Source: a virus. From it: a DNA stretch of 64,000 nt. Shown one piece after another: positions 940-39,488 of the stretch (position 1 is the first letter of the stretch; the number at the start of each line of letters is the position of its first letter). Location: the IMG/VR virus record IMGVR_UViG_3300008117_000025, positions 118,847-182,846 of that record. The stretch is one strand, 5' to 3'. The notes beneath the pieces are model-generated. The model did no database searches. It was not told the origin of the DNA and saw only the letters and a program-made list of their open reading frames with translations. Position numbers and translations under genes: made by a program.

Positions 940-2561
940 TAGAAAACATATATTGGTAAAGGAATTTGTTGTAATGTATCACGCTGGAATTGAGATTCTT
1001 GTTGCTTGCGCTCTAATTGTCCTTTACGTGACGTTTCATTTAACATTTCCTTTAACTCAGTTATTAATTGTTCTTTTTCTGTTCTAGAATCAGCTACTAA
1101 TTCAGATCCTTGAAGTGAACCTACACCTTGAACATTTACATTTGCAAATTGAATACGAATGTGTGCTTCAATTTCACGACACAATGCTAAGGTATATTTA
1201 AAAATCCAAGTTCTACCTACAGTATTAATTTTAGCATAAATTGGATTACGATAAGGAACATTCATAATGTCTGTTACAACATTGTTTCTAGTATCCTTGA
1301 TAACACTAAATTTATCACTTATAGTAACATATTCAAAAAATAAATTCTTATCCATTGTAGGGATAGGAAATATTTTTAATTTATTATTTACTAAATTAAA
1401 TGAATAAGCTGATTTTCTTATTTGATCATTAAATTCAATTGCTTGGATTTTTTGTACATCAAAATGAATTGGCATTAATAGGAAATTAACACCAGGAGAA
1501 AATTGACCAAATCCAAAAGTCTCAAGTAATGATTGTATACCAGTACCTGTACCTGCATATGGATCAAAGTAACGAACGATTGCAGGGGGTTCTTCATAAA
1601 ATATTCTTCTAATTTCAATTCTATCACCAGGATCTAATGATGCTGAAGCTGCAGCCCATACATTTAAATCGTAATCTTGAACTCCCATAGACATTGAAAC
1701 AGAACCAGTTAATACAGTGTATTTTCCTCCTACTCCTGTTTCTGATGCATAATCTTCAGCAATAGTAGTTGTTAATGTAGCAAGATTATTGCTTAATATT
1801 TTATTATTTAATTCTGGTTCTAGGCTATCTTGAATATAAATTGTTGGAATTGTATTTCCTCCAAATATAGGGGATCCACCTGCTATATTATAGTCTGAGG
1901 TGAAAACATATACATAACTTTCCCCAGGAGTAATAACTCCATCTACTGTTGGTCCTCCCAATCTATTTAATTGATTATAGACAAAAGCACTTAAATCAAT
2001 AATATTCCCTGAAACAGAGTCAGTGTATTCAGTTGCAAATGTAATTGATTTTACATAGTCTTTATTGGGTAAAACAAAATCAGAAACAGATGCAGAAATA
2101 ATATACACATTACCATCATCAACTGATTGAGAGAAAGTTGCATTATATTCAATATCGGCTTGAGTGGCCCATCTAGGTCCTGACCAATTTACAGGTGAGT
2201 TTATATCAATGCTATCAACATAAGTAACAGTAGCGTTATTAAGTTGAGCTGATGGAGATCCCTCCATGTTAAGGTACTGGTCTCTAATTTTATATTGGTA
2301 AACTAGATTACCATAAGTAGTAACTGCTTCTTCAAAAGCAGCATATACTGTTAAGTCAGAAATATTAAGTTGTGTATTACCTAATCCACTAGCGCCTAAA
2401 CGTTGTGCAACAAAACGTGCACAGTTTTTAGCATCACGAACAAACTCAGGATCGTTATCGTAATATTCAAATGGTGTATTACATTTAACAGGATTTAAAT
2501 ACGATGTATCACCGTAATATTCATCCCACAGTCTTTTTAGATTGATTGCTTTTGCGGCCAT
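939..2561 (-). CDS. Putative neck/head-tail adaptor protein (T4 gp13-like), with internal insertion
   Basis: 540 aa downstream of the capsid genes. AFEEAVTTY N-terminal and WIFKYTLALCRE...EKEQLITELKE C-terminal helices resemble adaptor proteins. Confidence 0.5.
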   Translation of the reverse strand: MAAKAINLKRLWDEYYGDTSYLNPVKCNTPFEYYDNDPEFVRDAKNCARFVAQRLGASGLGNTQLNISDLTVYAAFEEAVTTYGNLVYQYKIRDQYLNMEGSPSAQLNNATVTYVDSIDINSPVNWSGPRWATQADIEYNATFSQSVDDGNVYIISASVSDFVLPNKDYVKSITFATEYTDSVSGNIIDLSAFVYNQLNRLGGPTVDGVITPGESYVYVFTSDYNIAGGSPIFGGNTIPTIYIQDSLEPELNNKILSNNLATLTTTIAEDYASETGVGGKYTVLTGSVSMSMGVQDYDLNVWAAASASLDPGDRIEIRRIFYEEPPAIVRYFDPYAGTGTGIQSLLETFGFGQFSPGVNFLLMPIHFDVQKIQAIEFNDQIRKSAYSFNLVNNKLKIFPIPTMDKNLFFEYVTISDKFSVIKDTRNNVVTDIMNVPYRNPIYAKINTVGRTWIFKYTLALCREIEAHIRIQFANVNVQGVGSLQGSELVADSRTEKEQLITELKEMLNETSRKGQLERKQQESQFQRDTLQQIPLPIYVF

Positions 2562-3135
2562 TATTTAAGTAGTATTTAACACGTATAAATATACTTAATC
2601 TATCTTTCAAGTCAATTTGTGCAGTATCACCACATATGAGCATTTTACTACCTTCACATATTCTTCCTAATAATAATTCCATTTGTCTGTGGGTGATGTT
2701 TTGACCTTCGTCAACTACTACAGCGCAGTTAGTAAGGTTACGACCACGCATAAATGCTAATGGAATAACTTCAATGTGCCCTTCCATTATTTCTTTATCG
2801 ATTTTTTCTTTATTGTATAATCGATACATGTTGTCATAAATGGCTGCTGTGTATGGAGCTAATTTAGCATCTTTATCGCCAGGAAGATATCCAATTTCTT
2901 CTCCTGATGTTACAGCAGGGCGAGTAAGTATTACTTTCTCTACTTCATGGCGAAATAATAAGTCAAGAGCAACTTGCGCTGCTAACATTGATTTACCACT
3001 ACCAGCACTACCTTTTAATACTGTAATTTTATTTTGGAGGACAATTGCTTTAGCTTCTTTCTGCTCTTCGTTGAGAGTAACCGCAAATTTAATCGGATTT
3101 TTGAAGCTCTTCTTTTTGGGAAGGTGATCAGTCAT
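2521..3135 (-). pseudogene. phoH: PhoH-family ATPase, C-terminally truncated
   Basis: Walker A GSAGSGKS, TRPAV, GYLPGD, PLAFMRGR, VVVDEGQN and CGDTAQIDL are present. The sequence then departs from PhoH at about 2600 and reads into the next gene. Confidence 0.85.
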
Positions 3136-4878: not shown

Positions 4879-5997
4879 TTAAAATTTATTAATACCTGCT
4901 AACATTTGCCATCTAGCAACAGTATCGTTTACTTCAACGATTTGTTTTTTAGGGGCTACACCAGCAGCTTTAGAAGCAAATCCTAATGATTCTTTGATTG
5001 TGCTTTTCTTAGATTTTGCAATAGCACCATTCATTGATTCAAAAATAGCTTTAGCTTCTTTTGTAGTAGTTGCTTTATCGAATTGAGCAATTACTTTGAG
5101 TTTTTGTGATTCGTTCAAATTCTTAGCTTTGAAGATTTTGTTAACGTAAAGTAACTTAGCATTGAGTAAGTTAGTTTCGTTTAATTCGTTACGAAGAGCA
5201 TTGATAGTTTCAATTGCTTCTTTCATTTCTTTTTCATCTTCTTTTTTCTTCTTGTCGTCTTTTTTCTTAGCTTCGTACATATCATCTTTATCGTCGTCAG
5301 CTTCGTCTAAGGCATCAAGTTCAGCTAATAATTCTTCTAAATCGAAATCTTCTTCGATTTCTTCATCACCAGCTTCAGCGTCAACGTTTACAGCCACTTC
5401 ATCTTCACCACCCATGTTACCCATGTCAGCGCTCATATCACCCATTTCTGGGGCTTCGCCACTACCCATTTCGGCAGAGATAATGTCTTTGATAATGTCT
5501 TTCAATTCGTCAACTGTTAAGTCGGTAATTTTGTCGGCTTCTTCAGCTTCTTCTTCTTCGGATTCCTCTTCTTCAGATTCTTCCTCTTCAGATTCTTCTT
5601 CTTCGCCTTCTTCAGCTTCATCAAGATCTTCTTTATCTTCTTTTTTACCTTCTTCAAGTTCATCTTCTTTACTTAATTCAGCTAAAATTTCAGATAAATC
5701 GAAATCTTCTTCAAGCTCATCGTCGCCTTCTTCTAATGAGGCGTGTAATTTTCTAGCATTAACGCGTTGAATGTCATCGGTAGCATAGTTGTCTGTTCCG
5801 AGTTCCATTTCATCAAGCTCTTCCTTGTCTTTAGCTTCGTCTAAATCTTCATCCATTTCTTGTAACTTTGCAGCTAACATGGATTGAAGTTTTGGAGCAA
5901 GAGCTTCTTCAAGGGCAGCTTTAGCGTTTGCTAAGGCAGCTTCGCGAACGGCTTTAGCGTCGGCGATAGCCTCTTTGAATAAGTCTTTGTTTGACAT
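4879..5997 (-). CDS. Prohead core/scaffold protein; start revised to 5997 (MSNKDLF)
   Basis: Very acidic and coiled-coil, directly upstream of the capsid gene, with many LxE sites. AAGGAG lies 8 nt before the ATG at 5997. Confidence 0.75.
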   Translation of the reverse strand: MSNKDLFKEAIADAKAVREAALANAKAALEEALAPKLQSMLAAKLQEMDEDLDEAKDKEELDEMELGTDNYATDDIQRVNARKLHASLEEGDDELEEDFDLSEILAELSKEDELEEGKKEDKEDLDEAEEGEEEESEEEESEEEESEEEEAEEADKITDLTVDELKDIIKDIISAEMGSGEAPEMGDMSADMGNMGGEDEVAVNVDAEAGDEEIEEDFDLEELLAELDALDEADDDKDDMYEAKKKDDKKKKEDEKEMKEAIETINALRNELNETNLLNAKLLYVNKIFKAKNLNESQKLKVIAQFDKATTTKEAKAIFESMNGAIAKSKKSTIKESLGFASKAAGVAPKKQIVEVNDTVARWQMLAGINKF

Positions 5998-10319: not shown

Positions 10320-10654
10320 TATTTTAAAGTAACTTCAAATATTATTCCACTTATAGGGCTTGTTATTTTTTTAGTTTTAGGATCCTCTACGTGACCAAAC
10401 TGATGATTAAAAGCAGAAACAGAACATTCAATCACAAATGTTCCTGCTACTTTACTAAAATCACTAAGTCTAGATATTTTATGTACATTTATACTATAAT
10501 CATTGTTAATTTTAATTGGACCCATTTCTCCAACAAAATTATTCATTATATCACATATTTTACTCTTAGGAAGATTTATTTTATATTTTTTCCCAGACTC
10601 AAAATTAATTGGAGCTCCTTCTTTTATCCCAGCTAATTCTTGTAGTCTATTCAT
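10319..10654 (-). CDS. Hypothetical protein with MNRLQELAGIKE tag
   Basis: ORF track, coupled to its neighbours. Confidence 0.65.
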   Translation of the reverse strand: MNRLQELAGIKEGAPINFESGKKYKINLPKSKICDIMNNFVGEMGPIKINNDYSINVHKISRLSDFSKVAGTFVIECSVSAFNHQFGHVEDPKTKKITSPISGIIFEVTLK

Positions 10655-31800: not shown

Positions 31801-32890
31801 CGTCTACTAATTGGTCTTTGTATAATTCCCAAGCAGCAACACTCTCATCAGGTGAAATACCATCATGTATTTTAGGTGAAACTAATACTACTACTTGATC
31901 TGCTTTATTAAGTAATTGTTTTACTACACTAAAGTGACCTTTATGTGGTGGTTTGAATTTGCCTGGAAATAGTGCTATTGTTGTTTCACTTTGTTCAAGT
32001 AGCAATGATGCAATGTATCTACCTAGGTTAGTTTCACTTAGCATTGAATTTACTTTATCTAATGATTTTTGTTTATTATCGCCTTTTGGCGTATTTACTT
32101 CACCACTTTTAATAGATACCATCGAGTTAAAAACGCCTTTAATGCGGTTTTTAGAGCGTGGATTTTGTACCTTAGATGATATATTATTTAACAGTTCCTC
32201 GAAGCTACCGTCTATTTTGTAGTTGGTAAATAGCTTTTTGATATTAGACCAATTGCTAGTTTTCCATACTTCGGTACGATCAGTTTCTTTAAAATTATCT
32301 AACGTTACGATACGTAATGTTAAACCGGCGCTTGATAAGTTAAATTCATATTCTTGATTTGCTTCTAGTACAGGTACATTTTTTATACCCATACGAGCAA
32401 ATATTGATTTAGGATCTTCCTCTAGACATATTACCTTAGCTAATCCTAATAATAGTCCTTGTATTTCAGCAGGATAATCTAAAAATTCTTTCTTGAATTC
32501 AGCTTCATCATCACTAACAGAAACAATATTATCTATTTGAACGTATTGATCTGGTTGGTCTTCTATAGGATATAGTATGGTAATAATTTCACCTGTGTTG
32601 AGGTATTTTTTACCTTTATATTTTTCACTTTTAAAGGGAATAATAACGTCGTCTGGTAGTGCTGATAGGAATTTAGCTAGCTCTACTTTAATATTTTTCT
32701 TGTCTGTTGCTTCTAAATTAACAATTAAGTCAATATCACCAAAATCTTCTTTAGCGCTTGTATTATATGAACCTGAAATTTTAGCACTTTTAAAAGCAGG
32801 AAATTTCTTTAATATCCTGTTGATATAATTATCTGTTGTTTTAGCAACAGAAGCTCTAGTAATCCTATTTCCACCGGCTGATCCTGACAT
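28814..32890 (-). CDS. Polyvalent protein: Pol-beta-like NTase + HxGH nucleotidyltransferase + two repeats + HExxH metallopeptidase
   Basis: SGSYN...FGDIDL...VQID; ALFPGKFKPPHKGH; two YGNGYSFCISARG repeats; TLAHELVH...ENEANAKAG. Confidence 0.8.
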   Translation of the reverse strand: MSGSAGGNRITRASVAKTTDNYINRILKKFPAFKSAKISGSYNTSAKEDFGDIDLIVNLEATDKKNIKVELAKFLSALPDDVIIPFKSEKYKGKKYLNTGEIITILYPIEDQPDQYVQIDNIVSVSDDEAEFKKEFLDYPAEIQGLLLGLAKVICLEEDPKSIFARMGIKNVPVLEANQEYEFNLSSAGLTLRIVTLDNFKETDRTEVWKTSNWSNIKKLFTNYKIDGSFEELLNNISSKVQNPRSKNRIKGVFNSMVSIKSGEVNTPKGDNKQKSLDKVNSMLSETNLGRYIASLLLEQSETTIALFPGKFKPPHKGHFSVVKQLLNKADQVVVLVSPKIHDGISPDESVAAWELYKDQLVDGDKVEIRVSAVTPVKDVYDFVENNPEVTVYAAYGKGEEDRYKNLSKYSNAKIFDAGNFGGLNATDLRKAIRDGNEEEIKKFLPDGVEVADFLLAMGKESKEEPKPEPAPAEQPPAEPLKEYSEKVISQLTDKFTQENPELSTEQVKEYIKRFDQIKNNLSANKRDIFQYSWSDLEDTIKDNLQSKRIKAGKLNDGDVTNAELLYNQNNIRVYEGGSKKSCIKYGNGYSFCISARGSRNLYARYRVGSEEGSYEESGPASIYFVFDDSRSSDKGKNGFIDPTHLLVILVEEGEAFSVTEANNAGEELFSTFEEMAEVYPQLNGLKNILQYKPIGDSDIDVKIYNLERQKEKKLDNLLDEYPALSIISGKDTKSGKSTATKLLKGELQLYFYRLLAYDKKNGQLNPYMTIQKNYAVAKNEKEFEKNISGWIDNVKKLNLTPKLEYKLVPLDDEHEEILSTYIEISNKYDREILKLKLINETSINEYSNKLVNDLTAKFQQEKPNLGVNIIQSYINRFSQIKDSPRVTEKDITKYNWKDLETTVDANQPKRIKAGKINDGEPSKDANLVYNQNGLRIYVGKTKNACIKYGNGYSFCISARGDDNLYYDYRYEESGTPYFVFDDTKSSEQDKNGNFVDITHLLVIFVHPDPNGEFVDANYNMYSDNGIDHYTVTTADNPGEDFYSFFKNIEDKYPRLKGLKNIFKDVEVDPKEKAEYELDKKYNSLLGNLNDSYDYKNGKNYQEGFRDKQYVFRYIKTADNKIDDILSGKIKSYKIIATLKYVKKEDRYATSYISQNRIVKAGSDIKDEYKKFADNILMSLAPPGITLKDVLNDWNINSEELGLLKEYMEEVKQLVDEYRKELAKIKLMNEGLKSKLQRLDESETGTIGEFIKYACKNLAIQNPPRSLTLSYDTNQVKDRRSFGYFDPNDNKIWVYVKNRNMADILRTLAHELVHHKQNLDGRISYESGKTGSEIENEANAKAGILLRDFGKQNNEIYQ

Positions 32891-33861
32891 TATGCTTTTT
32901 CTTTTTGGTAAGGAATTAATTTAGAATTATCAGGTAAGAATTTACCTTTTAATCCTAGTCTATCTTGGTTATCAATCCAATATTTTTGTAAATTATCAGG
33001 TATATCTGCTCTAGTTGAGTCAAGTATTTTAAGATATCTATCCATAATAGAATTATATTCTTCTTTGGATATATTTTTTCTTATATAATCTTCTAATTTG
33101 AAATAATCATCAAGAATATCTTGAGTTAAATTAAAACCGTATAATTTATTTAATAGAGCGATTGCTTCTTTAGGATTAGATGCTTCCTGCTTACCTGTTT
33201 CCTTATCTAAAACACCAGTAGTATGACCAAATGTTTTACCTTTATTAGCAAATAAAGCTAACATTAATTGTGTACGATGTAATCCTTTAACATTGCCCTC
33301 ATATGATTGAGAATAATAACTAAAACGTAACCATTCAGGATTACCTACATTAATATCGGTTTGAACTGCTTTACCTACTTTTTCACCGTCAGGTCCGTAT
33401 TGAGGTATAGCACAAAATATAGAGCCGGCACCTGATGCTTTAAGATCAACTTCAACGTCAGGTAAAGCATCGTTAATTTTATCTCCAATCAATACAATCA
33501 TAGCACGTAATTGGAGTTTTTCAGGAGTAGCGGTTCTAGCTTTTTTAGTAAATTGAGCTAAAAGTTCATTATATTTGTTTTCATCTACACCCCAGCCTTT
33601 AAAGTCAGGTTTTCCACCAGGAAATATATTTTGAATATCATATGATAAATCAATATCACCTGACACGGCTTTTTTACCAGCAGATCCTAATTTTTCAAAT
33701 GCTTTAAACGTTGATGCCTTTGCAGGAAATATTTTAGATAATTGATCTACAAATTTTTCAATTGTAGGTTCAATATTGTCTTTTTCAATTGAATCGGTAG
33801 TACCAAATACATTACCACCTTCTAACAATATTTGTTTAGCTATTTTTAATAATTGGATCAT
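32890..33861 (-). CDS. Tagged Pol-beta-superfamily nucleotidyltransferase
   Basis: MIQLLKIAKQILLEG start; LGSAGKK..SGDIDL...VQTD. Confidence 0.75.
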   Translation of the reverse strand: MIQLLKIAKQILLEGGNVFGTTDSIEKDNIEPTIEKFVDQLSKIFPAKASTFKAFEKLGSAGKKAVSGDIDLSYDIQNIFPGGKPDFKGWGVDENKYNELLAQFTKKARTATPEKLQLRAMIVLIGDKINDALPDVEVDLKASGAGSIFCAIPQYGPDGEKVGKAVQTDINVGNPEWLRFSYYSQSYEGNVKGLHRTQLMLALFANKGKTFGHTTGVLDKETGKQEASNPKEAIALLNKLYGFNLTQDILDDYFKLEDYIRKNISKEEYNSIMDRYLKILDSTRADIPDNLQKYWIDNQDRLGLKGKFLPDNSKLIPYQKEKA

Positions 33862-33873
33862 AATTAAACATAA

Positions 33874-33904
33874 ATAGGCAGCTTGGACAGCCCAAGCTAC
33901 CTAT
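33874..33904 (-). terminator. 13-bp hairpin closing the TonB receptor/lipoprotein pair
   Basis: ATAGGTAGCTTGG/CCAAGCTGCCTAT (one G-U pair) followed by TTATGTTT. Confidence 0.65.
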
Positions 33905-33923
33905 AAATATTTGTTATTTTTGA

Positions 33924-35126
33924 TTATTGACCTTTAGCTGGGAAGCGTGTCCATCCATTTATCCATGATGGTCTAGCCAGAGCTTCCATCTCTAATTTAG
34001 TGTAATTTTTTTCAATATTACCTTCACCTAATGCTTTTGTTTTCATTTGAGATGCAGTAAATAATGTTGAAGTTGATTTAAAGTTTAATAATGGATCATA
34101 TGCTTGAATTTCATTATTTTCAAATTTACTAACACCATCTTTATAAGAGGTTGCTGTTTCATTTGATTCAATTGAAAATGCACCTTTTTGATATCCTAAT
34201 ATTTTAGAATTAGTAATCGTAAATTGTGTAGCACGTCTCCATCTTAAACCTAAGTTGTGATTAGCTAAAGCAGCAGCATCAAATGGACCAATTAATGTCA
34301 TTCCTACTAATTTAGGATGAGTAAATGGTTGAGCGGAAGATCCAACACCATCATTATCACATTCTACACCATTACCTGCATCTCCATTATCTACGAATTG
34401 AGGGTCACGCTTTGATACTCCATTTGTTACAGTTCCTGTATAACCAAAATCAAAATCATAATCATCATCTGCTGTTGCAAATGCATATAGGTTTTTAGGG
34501 GATACAGTACCACCAAAGAATTCAAATGCATCGTCGTTAGCATATACTGTTTGAACGTTTTCAATTATAGTACCTGAACCTACTCCACCTAATGTTAAAG
34601 CGTTAATTTCAGAGTTAGGTAAAGCAGCAACACCAGCATATTCAATACGAACATACTTTAATACACCACTATTGTCAGCATCATTAGTACCACCAAATGC
34701 TCTACCAATGCCGCCTTCAATAGTTGGTTCTGATGAGCGATTAGTTTTAGCGCGACCTAAAATTACAATACCACCCCAATCGCCAGGAGATCTCTCGCCA
34801 GCGTTTTTACCTGAGGTGAATATAATCGGTTTTGTAGATGTTCCTTCAGCAATGATTTGGGCTCCTCTTTCAATACACAAAGCACCTTTTTCAGCAATAT
34901 CGCTTACAATAGTGGTGCCAGGTTGAATAATAATTTTAGCTCCATCAGTTACATACACATATCCTTTTAAAGTCCATACCTTGTCTGATGTTAAGGTAAT
35001 AGTTGTGTTAATATTGCCATTAAGTACAGTGTTTGATGGTACATTGATAGGTCCATCTTCACCACCTAATTCTTTAGTGCAGGAAAATATCCCTACTAAT
35101 GCTAATAATGTTAATAGCTTTTTCAT
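33924..35126 (-). CDS. Bacteroidota-type surface lipoprotein, beta-helix-like, TonB-receptor associated
   Basis: Signal peptide and lipobox GIFSC; motifs GDWGGIVILG, DNSGVLKYVRIEYAG, NDDAFEFFGG and DDDYDFDFGY. Confidence 0.85.
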   Translation of the reverse strand: MKKLLTLLALVGIFSCTKELGGEDGPINVPSNTVLNGNINTTITLTSDKVWTLKGYVYVTDGAKIIIQPGTTIVSDIAEKGALCIERGAQIIAEGTSTKPIIFTSGKNAGERSPGDWGGIVILGRAKTNRSSEPTIEGGIGRAFGGTNDADNSGVLKYVRIEYAGVAALPNSEINALTLGGVGSGTIIENVQTVYANDDAFEFFGGTVSPKNLYAFATADDDYDFDFGYTGTVTNGVSKRDPQFVDNGDAGNGVECDNDGVGSSAQPFTHPKLVGMTLIGPFDAAALANHNLGLRWRRATQFTITNSKILGYQKGAFSIESNETATSYKDGVSKFENNEIQAYDPLLNFKSTSTLFTASQMKTKALGEGNIEKNYTKLEMEALARPSWINGWTRFPAKGQ

Positions 35127-37277
35127 AAATTAAGATTGATTGTTAATGAGATTGATTGTTCGTTGTTTGTTTTGATTAAATTACCTCTTGTTTTTTGGTA
35201 GTAGATAGATGGTTGCGCAAGTACATCACCTATTGCCAATTTGATTTCACCTTTATTTATCTTACGTAAGTAAACTAAGTCGATTATATCTCTAGAATTT
35301 TCAAATATATCAGCATACCCTTGGAATCCAACTGCTGATATTCTGTCTCCTACTCTATTATATGATACGTTTAATGTATTTTTATTTTTATGGAAATTTA
35401 AACCACTGTTAATAACGTATTTTGATTGGCCTTGTAATTGGCGTTTTATACCATTTACTTTAACTTCAGAATTAGTTAAAGCTGTATTTGTGTAAAAATC
35501 TAACCACTCATTTACTTTTTTACGAATTTCAAATTCAACACCATAAATTATAGCTGATTTGGGGTTGGTGAATTTCACCTGATTTAGGATAAAATTCATA
35601 TTTAAGATCTAAATTATAGATATCTGATTTTTCTAGATTAGGATTACCTAATAATTGGGCGTTTCTAACAAAATCATAATAAGCAAAGTTAGCTACTTCT
35701 CTAAATTCAGGACGAGATAATGTTTTGCTAGCTGATATGCGGTATTTGGTTTTATCTAAATTATAAGATAAATTTAATGATGGTAAAACATCTAAATATT
35801 TTCTATTTACATTTACTTTAGTACCGCTAAAATCAGCTGTATTGACATTAAATAGATTATATTCAGTTCTTAAACCAGTATTTAATTTCCATTTCCCAAA
35901 TTCATTATCGTACATTGCATATCCATTTGCTAAATCAAAATCAGCTACATACTTATCTGTATTGTTTGTGATTTCATTTAGCATATCTGCTGCTTCATAT
36001 CTGAATATTCTGGCTTTAAAGTTTCTTGTTCTTTTAAGGTATCCACCACCAACTTTAACTTTATTAAATGATTTATTTAAATTACCATTAAAGCTATTTT
36101 CATCCATTACACTCCAAAAACGGTATGTATCTCTCCAGGCTACAGCATAAGGTTCATTTATACTTAATGATTTTGTAATTGGATTTACTCTATAGTCAGG
36201 TTGATCACGTAACATTAAATTATAACCTAAGTTAAAATCTAATGTTTTAATTTTACCTTCAAATTGAGAATTTACAACAGTTTTAATAATGTGATTAGAA
36301 GCATTACTTCTTACATTTTGAACATTATCATAATTTTCACCATTACGAGTTAAATATGATTGTTCAATTTGATGATTAAATAATGTCTTTAAGCTATATT
36401 TATTTTTACCTGTATAAGTAATATTAGCTAAACCATTTAATAGTGTTGTTTTAGTAAATAGTGTATCTTTATACTTATATGCTAATTCGGTTGATGATTG
36501 ATAATCTTGTCTATCAATATAATTTAAAGAGTAAGTATTTCTAGCTGTGGAGCTAAATAAGAAATTCCAATTATTTTTCTTTAAACCAAAAGACAAAGAT
36601 CCATTTGTATTAGGAATAGATGTAAATTGTTTAGCCTGAGGAGAATTAATTAACTTAGTATATGCTCTTTTATCTCCATTACTGCTTATGCGGTATTTGT
36701 AAGTGGAAGGGAACATTGAAGGGAACTGAATAGATTCCACCAAGTTGAATTTTTGAGATGTAGACACCACTCCATAACTTGACCCCAGGCTTAAAGAAAA
36801 AAAATTGCTAGAAACATCTTTAGTAGCAATTTGAATAACACCACCAGCAAAATCTCCAGGCAAATTAGCAGTAGCCGATTTGGCTACAATTATATTGTCT
36901 ATTAATCCTGAAGGTATAATATCGAATGAGAATGCTCTGCGATCAGGTTCAGTTGATGGTAGGTAGGTTTTATTTAGTAAAGCTAAATTATATCTATCAG
37001 CTAAACCACGTACTAATACGAATTTATCGTTTTGAATTGTAACACCATTTACTCTTTTAAGAGCATCACCTACTGTACGATCTGGTGTTTTTTTAATAAA
37101 TTCAACTGATAGGCCATCAGAAATAACGGAGCTGTTCCTAATTGTGTTAAGAACAGCTACGTTGGTTTCTTTTTTAGTTACGGAACGAACCGTAATATTG
37201 TCTAATTTTTTGTTAAATAGTGTGTCTTGAGAAAATAAAAATACAGGACACAATAACAAGAATAATAAATGTTTCAA
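35123..37277 (-). pseudogene. TonB-dependent receptor split at about 35573/35572 into ORFs 35535-37277 and 35123-35599
   Basis: TTG start and signal peptide; plug motifs GDALKRVNGVT, VRGLADRYN and LPGDFAGGVIQI; barrel motifs LPSLNLSY, SRPEFRE and GNPNLEKS. The barrel resumes in another frame at FTNPKSA. Confidence 0.88.
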
Positions 37278-37305
37278 ACGAGAAATTTTGTTTCACTTAT
37301 AATTA

Positions 37306-38091
37306 TTAGGCATTTAATTTAATACTCGTGGGTAATAACTCCGTCATAGGCTTAAAGTCTGGGTTTTCAAGCTTATAGATTTCATATATGTTTTTAAACA
37401 TGCTGAAATTAGTAGCAATGCCATCTGATGGTTTTAATTGCCATCCTTTACCTTGAATTGCATCTTTTTTACCCTCACCACGAGTAGATGCTTTTAACCA
37501 CAAAATACCTGTGCGTTCAATAAGAGTATCGTGTGTTTCATTCCAAGCAACAGCATACGCTGCTAATTGTAAATCATATGAAGTATGGAGTGAATTTGAT
37601 GTTTTAATATCAAGTAACCAAACTTGATCATTTAATCTAACAATCAAGTCAGCTGTACCTGCATATTCATGAGCGTCTGAAAATAAATGATATTCTGTAG
37701 CAATTAGTTCTGGTTTATGTGTATTCCAAAATTCGGCAAATTTAAGAATCATCTTCCAAACTTCTAAACTATATTCTGCTCTTCCGTTTTCATCTAACCA
37801 ATTAATTTCTTCACCATTCAAGAAACGATCAATAGCAGTGTGTACTTGTGTACCTTCAGATGCTGCTCTAGAAGCAATGATATCAGCATTGTGACCTACA
37901 TCTTTAAGCCACTCATGGAAAAATTTATTTTTAGGAAAATAATTTAATACTGATGTTACTGAAGGATAGTATTTGTCGTTGCGTCTATAGAATCGGGAGT
38001 CTAAAACATTAATTTGCTTGTCTCCTTGGCTGTACTCAACGATGCGCTTAATTTTAGGGTCTTTTATGACGTTAACGTGTCTGTCAATCAT
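37306..38091 (-). CDS. PD-(D/E)xK exonuclease (Cas4/RecB-like)
   Basis: Motifs YPSVTSVL, GTQVH, YAGTADLI, LDIKTS and LQLAAYA. Confidence 0.85.
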   Translation of the reverse strand: MIDRHVNVIKDPKIKRIVEYSQGDKQINVLDSRFYRRNDKYYPSVTSVLNYFPKNKFFHEWLKDVGHNADIIASRAASEGTQVHTAIDRFLNGEEINWLDENGRAEYSLEVWKMILKFAEFWNTHKPELIATEYHLFSDAHEYAGTADLIVRLNDQVWLLDIKTSNSLHTSYDLQLAAYAVAWNETHDTLIERTGILWLKASTRGEGKKDAIQGKGWQLKPSDGIATNFSMFKNIYEIYKLENPDFKPMTELLPTSIKLNA

Positions 38092-39056: not shown

Positions 39057-39488
39057 CTACAACAAGTCTTTAGTAAAGAATTTACCTAGTATATTATCAT
39101 TGTATGATCTGTCCTTTCCAATCAGAACTTCTTCTTTACACTGGAAATGCATTTCGTAATATGTTAATGCTTTTTTAGTTTTGCATTGTATTAGGATCCA
39201 ACGATCAAAATTTTCCTCGCCATATTCCTTAATATCAGTAAGTAATTGTTTATTAGACCCCCAATATTTTTGCCAATCGCTTTCAGTACGAATTATTTCG
39301 TGAGTTGGTTTGCGACCTGGGCCAGTTTGTTCAGCAAGTTGTTTTTTAGTGAGTTTGTGTTTTTTATTATTCCAAAACACTTTTTTACCAATATAAAATT
39401 TACCTGTTTTTAAATTGGTAATTTTATAAACAAAACCATAATATTTTTCGGGATTAGGTATATCCCAACTTTTCCACTTGTGTATCAT
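39057..39488 (-). CDS. GIY-YIG endonuclease (Seg-like)
   Basis: Motifs GFVYKITNLKTGKFYIGKK, YWGSN and YNDNI. Confidence 0.8.
   Translation of the reverse strand: MIHKWKSWDIPNPEKYYGFVYKITNLKTGKFYIGKKVFWNNKKHKLTKKQLAEQTGPGRKPTHEIIRTESDWQKYWGSNKQLLTDIKEYGEENFDRWILIQCKTKKALTYYEMHFQCKEEVLIGKDRSYNDNILGKFFTKDLL

Follow-up and report, generated by a model that had tools for sequence, protein, structure and literature searches.

Pairs of adjacent genes encoding a TonB-dependent receptor (TBDR) and a beta-helical lipoprotein have been described in several bacteria. In Flavobacterium johnsoniae, Fjoh_0545 (pf07715, pf13715, pf14905) and Fjoh_0546 ('FII', with a pectin-lyase fold) belong to the PUSIV cluster in the phoBR operon and are strongly induced by phosphate depletion, not by nitrogen or iron limitation (PMC8115612). 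Fjoh_0546 is related to ElpS of Caulobacter crescentus (PMC8115612; PMC2996285), which is encoded in the pair ElpS/CCNA_00170 and made under phosphate starvation (Le Blastier et al. 2010, PMC2996285), and the BT4055/BT4056 pair of Bacteroides thetaiotaomicron represents a lid family for non-SusC transporters, with the pair adjacent in 621 genera (bioRxiv 10.1101/2023.03.17.533168). Here we analyze a pair of this type carried by a lake phage of about 183 kb, within a stretch of 64,000 nucleotides (nt), hereafter the window, that spans positions 118,847-182,846 of the 182,846-bp IMG/VR virus record IMGVR_UViG_3300008117_000025. The cassette is probably a phage-borne version of an outer-membrane import unit that Bacteroidota use in phosphate starvation, serving as a phosphorus-scavenging auxiliary module and present in this genome as a null allele.

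The window pair has the same make-up as Fjoh_0545/0546, a non-SusC transporter with Plug and OMP_b-brl_3 domains followed by a pectin-lyase-fold lipoprotein, and its bacterial relatives adjoin two-component-system and Pit/PHO4 genes, as does PUSIV. It differs from that pair in that its receptor lacks the CarboxypepD_reg domain (pf13715) present in Fjoh_0545, and in that it is phage-encoded, with a broken receptor and without nearby phoBR genes or a Pho-box-like site, whereas the Fjoh pair lies in the phoBR operon. ElpS/CCNA_00170 and BT4055/BT4056 are likewise of the same pair type, a surface or secreted beta-helix lipoprotein beside a TonB-dependent transporter; the kinship with ElpS is distant and taken from the papers, and the best NCBIfam match of the receptor, TIGR01782 (TonB-Xanth-Caul), scores below the cut-off (187 vs 310 bits). 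An earlier sequence-only reading of this stretch had suggested the link to ElpS, and the literature on Fjoh_0545/0546, ElpS/CCNA_00170 and the lid family (PMC8115612, PMC2996285, bioRxiv 10.1101/2023.03.17.533168) agrees with it.

The lipoprotein gene is intact. The signal peptide of its product ends in the lipobox I-F-S-C16, followed by T-K-E-L-G-G-E-D, which bears out the earlier description of an FSC lipoprotein with a K-E/acidic stretch after the cysteine, and the lipobox cysteine column is kept in the alignment consensus. Precomputed annotation assigns PF28492 (Beta_helix_4) to the lipoprotein and to all 120 listed relatives, and its Atlas clusters are 100% PF28492; PHROGs, NCBIfam and the local Pfam copy returned no family, the PF28492 model being absent from the local libraries. 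With a 26-row alignment, AlphaFold2 predicted a right-handed beta-helix at a mean confidence (pLDDT) of 90.2, as compared with 33 in a single-sequence run, and the model could be aligned to AlgE4 and other beta-helices with VIA-align (Z 23.2, root-mean-square deviation 3.7 over 277 residues). The top structural matches were alginate epimerases, PL6 and pectate lyases, and tailspikes, at 7-17% identity; a Foldseek search of the PDB with the model gave nothing at E <= 0.001, and a sequence search of the PDB gave nothing relevant. The lipoprotein has no close relative with a solved structure, and what its model has in common with beta-helix enzymes is a shared fold, which is no sign of function. 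Many of the conserved columns are Asp, Glu or Asn. A phage tailspike or depolymerase was rejected as an identity for this protein on the grounds of its lipoprotein signal, its coupling to the receptor gene and its grouping with bacterial lid lipoproteins, only the fold being shared, at 8-17% identity. With a lipobox, a PF28492 beta-helix and same-strand adjacency to the gene for a non-SusC TonB-dependent transporter, here in two pieces, the lipoprotein is best placed in the lid family. Beta_helix_4 also occurs as two to five tandem copies in proteins of 1,000-2,400 amino acids (aa) (representative library matches P0121-P0135); the lid domain is reused in these much larger surface proteins.

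The receptor carries the Pfam domains Plug and OMP_b-brl_3, and neither Pfam nor NCBIfam models of SusC/RagA or SusD matched the pair. Its OMP_b-brl_3 and TIGR01782 matches, together with the beta-helical lid, set the pair apart from SusC/SusD, and the receptor is a non-SusC TonB-dependent transporter. In the window its signal peptide leads directly into Plug, without a CarboxypepD_reg extension, and the compact receptor appears to have lost the extension cleanly, with a host-like signal peptide retained. The sequence-only reading had described just such a compact TBDR, with the plug directly after the signal peptide, and that part holds; its other part, a single open gene, does not, as the gene is split by a deletion into two open reading frames (ORFs) of 580 and 158 aa, and no single ORF in the window spans the plug and the whole barrel of a functional TonB-dependent transporter. 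The lipoprotein start overlaps the stop of the upstream 158-aa receptor fragment by 4 nt (ATGA), and the 4-nt overlap claimed with a TBDR is therefore present, but involves only this C-terminal fragment.

The nature of the break emerges from comparison with sibling contigs, that is, contigs assembled from many Joint Genome Institute (JGI) and European Nucleotide Archive (ENA) samples whose lipoprotein is identical to that of the window. DNA alignment with one of them, L007, across the 2.3-kb receptor region reveals one substitution and a 92-nt deletion, which takes out residues 569-599 of a 748-aa receptor and shifts the frame. The 580-aa fragment equals the intact L007 receptor up to residue 568 and then runs through a 12-residue out-of-frame tail into a stop, and the last 149 residues of the 158-aa fragment are identical to the intact sibling receptor. 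The 748-aa receptor is intact in L007, L008, L010, L011 and L013, all more than 99.8% identical, and the more distant L009 and L016 also have an intact receptor. Two further lesions were found, a 133-nt out-of-frame deletion in L006, with the same right-hand end as the 92-nt deletion and a different left end, and a nonsense codon (S669*) in L012. The lipoprotein gene is 100% conserved among the same assemblies that bear these three receptor null alleles.

We consider it rather unlikely that the 92-nt break arose in assembly or consensus calling and that the phage itself encodes an intact 748-aa receptor. Such an artefact would accord with the intact receptors of the five near-identical and two slightly more distant contigs, with the end shared by the two deletion alleles (this record and L006), and with the JGI sample identifier of L006 (3300008120), which is among the lowest of these contigs. 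However, the flanks of the deletion share nothing long enough for a de Bruijn assembler to skip 92 nt, on which ground a de Bruijn collapse was rejected as its cause and junction-spanning reads therefore probably exist; moreover, the separate 133-nt deletion and the independent S669* in other assemblies fit real segregating null alleles. A programmed frameshift is ruled out by the loss of 31 codons and by the second allele with a different out-of-frame 133-nt deletion. We also discarded the 764-aa receptor calls in the JGI contigs L010 and L011, which start inside the exonuclease gene and run past a TGA stop; the DNA of both has no indel relative to L007, and translation with table 11 yields the normal 748 aa. 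Judged from its sequence, the receptor in this genome is a null allele or pseudogene, possibly segregating. The receptor being broken, this genome would therefore make only the lid, and the proposal of the sequence-only reading that the phage installs its own outer-membrane uptake machine fails here. The intact lid gene beside receptor null alleles weakly hints that the lid is used by itself. As separate observations, the 92-nt and 133-nt deletions are nested with one fixed end, a pattern that repair of a cut made at one set position could explain, and about 3.5 kb upstream of the deletion, at 39057..39488 in the window, there is a gene for a SegE-like GIY-YIG endonuclease, so named after the Pfam annotation of its sibling.

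Bacterial relatives, searched with one genome per species, place the pair in a phosphate context. The closest cellular relatives of the lipoprotein belong to Aquirufa and other Spirosomataceae (71-72% identity), followed by Chitinophagales and Sphingobacteriales at about 50-65%, and a lipoprotein homolog was found in 197 of 301 sampled Bacteroidota genomes. A TBDR gene lies immediately upstream of the homolog in 77 of 80 bacterial loci, and 34 of the 80 have a PHO4 transporter gene within a few kb. Neighbours in 38 non-redundant loci include PhoU_div (17 loci), PHO4 (16), a HisKA histidine kinase (14) and an OmpR-type regulator (12), and in four of them an alkaline-phosphatase-superfamily protein adjoins. 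The nearest cellular pair, that of Aquirufa esocilacus (L017; 72% lipoprotein identity and 69% identity to the intact sibling receptor), has the same gene order as the phage pair and, downstream, an alkaline-phosphatase-superfamily gene plus two PHO4 genes. The two genes of this Aquirufa pair are separated by a 1-nt gap, in contrast to the 4-nt overlap of the phage pair, and its 845-aa receptor bears an N-terminal extension of about 97 residues that the receptor of the window lineage lacks. An extension of this CarboxypepD_reg type is present in all 65 bacterial receptors (65/65).

These loci also share a repeat. Arrays of TTAAYA-N5-TAAYA with an 11-bp period occur about 70-100 nt before the receptor start, and they precede the TBDR in 65 of 65 bacterial loci as compared with 4% of null windows. 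In A. esocilacus such arrays stand at 5377-5430, 10394-10423 and 13756-13807 of L017, before the TBDR-lipoprotein operon and both PHO4 genes. Our results support the repeat as a candidate phosphate-regulon control site, although we found no paper defining TTAAYA-N5-TAAYA as a Pho box in these Bacteroidota. The bacterial orthologs thus combine a neighbourhood of phosphate genes with a shared repeat, as members of a Pho regulon would, and the Pho-regulon context that the sequence-only reading proposed to look for in them is borne out by PhoU_div, PHO4 and two-component genes and by the repeat nearby. In phages the repeat is kept in 49 of 67 copies, and it is absent from all seven loci of the exonuclease context to which the window belongs.

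The cassette is widespread among phages. At least 270 IMG/VR contigs encode a relative of the lipoprotein, as detected with two peptide patterns, and the best 80 of 270 viral relatives are 73-89% identical to it; outer-membrane transporters are therefore less unusual as phage cargo than the sequence-only reading had held, given these contigs and a published megaphage that carry the pair. Wherever a viral locus extends far enough upstream, the receptor is a single open frame (67/67), and the ATGA overlap is kept in 75 of 78. Median pairwise ratios of nonsynonymous to synonymous substitution rates (dN/dS) are 0.11 (lipoprotein) and 0.13 (receptor), indicative of strong purifying selection on both phage proteins, which suggests that the original transport function is kept. 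At least eight flank contexts can be distinguished among the viral loci, the exonuclease context of the window comprising only eight loci; in several others a hairpin and T-run terminator, and then the repeat, precede the cassette in a moron-like arrangement, as judged by eye.

Trees were inferred with FastTree only. In the lipoprotein tree, all 85 viral rows lie on one side of a branch with support 99, sister to Aquirufa, so that the question raised by the sequence-only reading, whether the closest homologs constitute a phage clade, is answered in the affirmative. The receptor tree places Aquirufa together with eight viral rows, inside a joint clade that has a long stem. For both trees the simplest reading is a single transfer, or a small number of them, from a lineage resembling Aquirufa, the direction being unproven. 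The CarboxypepD_reg extension is retained in about half of the phage receptors; among L099-L178, for instance, L109, L119 and L134 have it and L102, L135 and L140 do not. The extension was called by an open-frame criterion that Pfam confirmed in nine of ten cases, L127 being a false call; tblastn with the Aquirufa extension proved too insensitive for the purpose, detecting it in 36 of the 65 bacterial loci. Parsimony on the receptor tree gives approximately six changes of extension state and approximately ten for the Pho-box-like repeat. The window lineage is the most streamlined form, with no receptor extension and no Pho-box-like repeat, and within a block of replication genes. Transcription of its pair probably continues from the primase-exonuclease genes, and would thereby be tied to the replication block and not to host PhoB.

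The megaphage LR745206 (635 kb; L098, LR745206.1 75164-86048) carries a distant pair near a NAMPT-like gene. Its gene order is reversed relative to the window, a 431-aa lipoprotein (37% identity) coming first and an 882-aa receptor with CarbopepD_reg_2 and Plug second, and its branch is very long in both trees. A 'SusC' TonB-dependent receptor had been noted in the megaphages Mar_Mega_1 and LR745206 and read as a carbohydrate SusC, with no mention of the lipoprotein partner or of phosphate (PMC9723777); phage-borne TBDRs have therefore been noticed before.

What carries the interpretation of the cassette as a phosphorus-scavenging module is the demonstrated homology, the gene context, the phage-specific clade, the purifying selection and the fact that most phage copies have the control-site repeat. 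Several points weigh against it. Expression of the phage copies in infection, their assembly at the surface, a phosphorus substrate and a benefit to the phage are steps that we infer, and the link to Fjoh_0546, BT4056 and ElpS is one that we draw from matching domain sets, context and papers. The authors of a 2026 preprint on the F. johnsoniae loci still call the function of Pus3/Pus4 hard to predict (10.64898/2026.09.03.749221). The repeat is a putative Pho box from gene context only, and the matrix used to score it was trained on some of the sites later scored. In the window, no Pho-box-like site was found within 420 nt upstream of the pair (best score -7.1 vs a training minimum of 5.5), so that this copy is not a Pho-box-controlled auxiliary gene, and the phosphate-responsive part of the interpretation is not applicable to this genome, with its broken receptor and no such site.

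If the cassette does scavenge phosphorus, phages with an intact pair would produce two translationally coupled proteins that are exported through the host Sec pathway. The barrel would be placed in the outer membrane by the host assembly machinery, and the lipoprotein would be lipidated at Cys16, flipped to the cell surface and there cap the barrel. Host TonB would then drive uptake of a phosphorus-containing substrate, and host periplasmic phosphatases and Pit/PHO4 transporters would complete its import, feeding synthesis of the 183-kb phage genome. In the genome studied here at most the lipoprotein would act, perhaps together with the host's own receptor.

Two other functions can be envisaged for the pair. 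It might remodel the cell surface, for superinfection exclusion, receptor replacement or as a decoy. Phage T5 uses the lipoprotein Llp against FhuA, and TonB-dependent receptors are common phage receptors; in addition, the window lineage has lost host-type control and sits among primase and exonuclease genes, a timing useful for exclusion. We nevertheless regard such remodelling as improbable, since 49 of the 67 phage copies keep the host-type Pho-box-like repeat, both proteins are 69-72% identical to those of Aquirufa under strong purifying selection, and a decoy would need no complete transporter with a plug. PHROGs gave no exclusion-family match (PADLOC was not run). The receptor decoy that the sequence-only reading had offered as an alternative finds no support.

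Import of a nutrient other than phosphorus, such as an anionic polysaccharide, with the beta-helix as a lyase-like binder, appears to us similarly doubtful. Its appeal lies in the top structural matches of the lipoprotein, which are alginate epimerases, PL6/pectate lyases and tailspike depolymerases, and in the polygalacturonase-like modelling noted by Lidbury et al. 2021 (PMC8115612). Those enzymes share only 7-17% identity with the lipoprotein, however, and fold alone tells no function; the neighbours of the bacterial pairs are genes of phosphate transport and regulation, not carbohydrate enzymes, and the published induction is specific to phosphate depletion (PMC8115612). Finally, although its proteins are 69-72% identical to Aquirufa genes, the cassette is almost certainly not host DNA wrongly joined to a phage contig, as more than ten independent JGI and ENA assemblies show identical junctions to the exonuclease and the 323-aa gene, G+C content is flat at 0.31-0.32 over the cassette region, and the phage copies form a clade of their own with 84-100% mutual identity vs <=72% to any bacterial species representative. 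The record itself is rated complete and has direct terminal repeats, which together with the identical junctions across many independent assemblies confirms that the pair is phage-borne.

In cyanophages, a host Pho box controls the phage-borne phosphate genes pstS and phoA. The cassette interpreted here as a phosphorus-scavenging module follows the same logic of a phage with host Pho-regulon uptake genes, and most of its phage copies keep the host-type repeat; it differs in being an outer-membrane TonB-dependent importer with a lid instead of a periplasmic binding protein, in the host phylum, and in the lack of a control site in the window. Phosphorus-boosting phage genes are textbook knowledge for cyanophages (pstS, phoA) and have not been described for Bacteroidota phages, nor has a complete outer-membrane TonB-dependent importer with its lid been described as phage phosphorus cargo; our literature search found no paper on a phage-borne ElpS/FII-type pair. 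The bacterial family is widespread, as the genera (bioRxiv 10.1101/2023.03.17.533168) and sampled genomes counted above attest, and strongly induced by phosphate starvation. The hundreds of phage copies with and without the extension and the control site make up a compact comparative set on how the system functions, and they bear on phage effects on lake phosphorus cycling. For this genome, the annotation of the receptor as a pseudogene or segregating null allele is a useful correction.

All bacterial copies keep both the N-terminal extension and the Pho-box-like site, and the phage copies vary. It is a tentative proposal, and one that may well prove wrong, that phages domesticated a host phosphate-starvation importer and repeatedly streamline it, with receptor null alleles segregating in nature and the lid conserved. 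If so, the receptor would be costly or useful only under some conditions, for example because the water is rich in phosphate or because competing phages can adsorb to it, the lid would serve some separate role alongside the host receptor, and the extension-free phage receptors would be natural experiments on the role of the extension.

The layout of the locus is given in Table 1. Nearly all long ORFs of the window lie on the minus strand. The sequence-only reading had correctly placed the pair between an exonuclease and further genes, here the 323-aa gene, and had correctly seen that the cassette is closed by its own terminator.

Table 1 Features of the receptor-lipoprotein cassette and its flanks, in window coordinates
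Feature	Position	Strand	Description
PD-(D/E)XK exonuclease, upstream flank	37306..38091	-	28 nt from receptor start
Receptor, N-terminal fragment	35535..37277	-	580 aa, TTG start; signal peptide, candidate TonB box, Plug, most of barrel
92-nt out-of-frame deletion junction	35573/35574 (about)	-	Alignments to L003, L005, L007 and others
Receptor, C-terminal fragment	35123..35599	-	158 aa, different frame; matches end of OMP_b-brl_3
Intact surface lipoprotein	33924..35126	-	400 aa; lipobox Cys16; Beta_helix_4 / ElpS-FII-BT4056-type lid
Terminator-like hairpin closing the cassette	33904..33874	-	14-bp stem, T-rich tail
323-aa gene, downstream flank	32890..33861	-	50% identity to immuto gene 181

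At the DNA level, the closest cultured relatives of the phage are the 160-kb Flavobacterium phages vB_FspM_immuto (Immutovirus). In immuto the exonuclease homolog is followed directly by the homolog of the 323-aa gene (gene 181), with no cassette between them, and the cassette is therefore an insertion relative to immuto. These cultured relatives infect Flavobacterium, but the nearest putative gene donor is Aquirufa, so that either is only a candidate host. A PhoH-family gene is located at 2521..3135 on the minus strand (181 bits). The sequence-only reading had taken phoH as a hint that the pair imports organic phosphorus; the gene is indeed present, but the family is also matched in 11 of 14 control genomes, and phoH is therefore no evidence for a phosphorus role.

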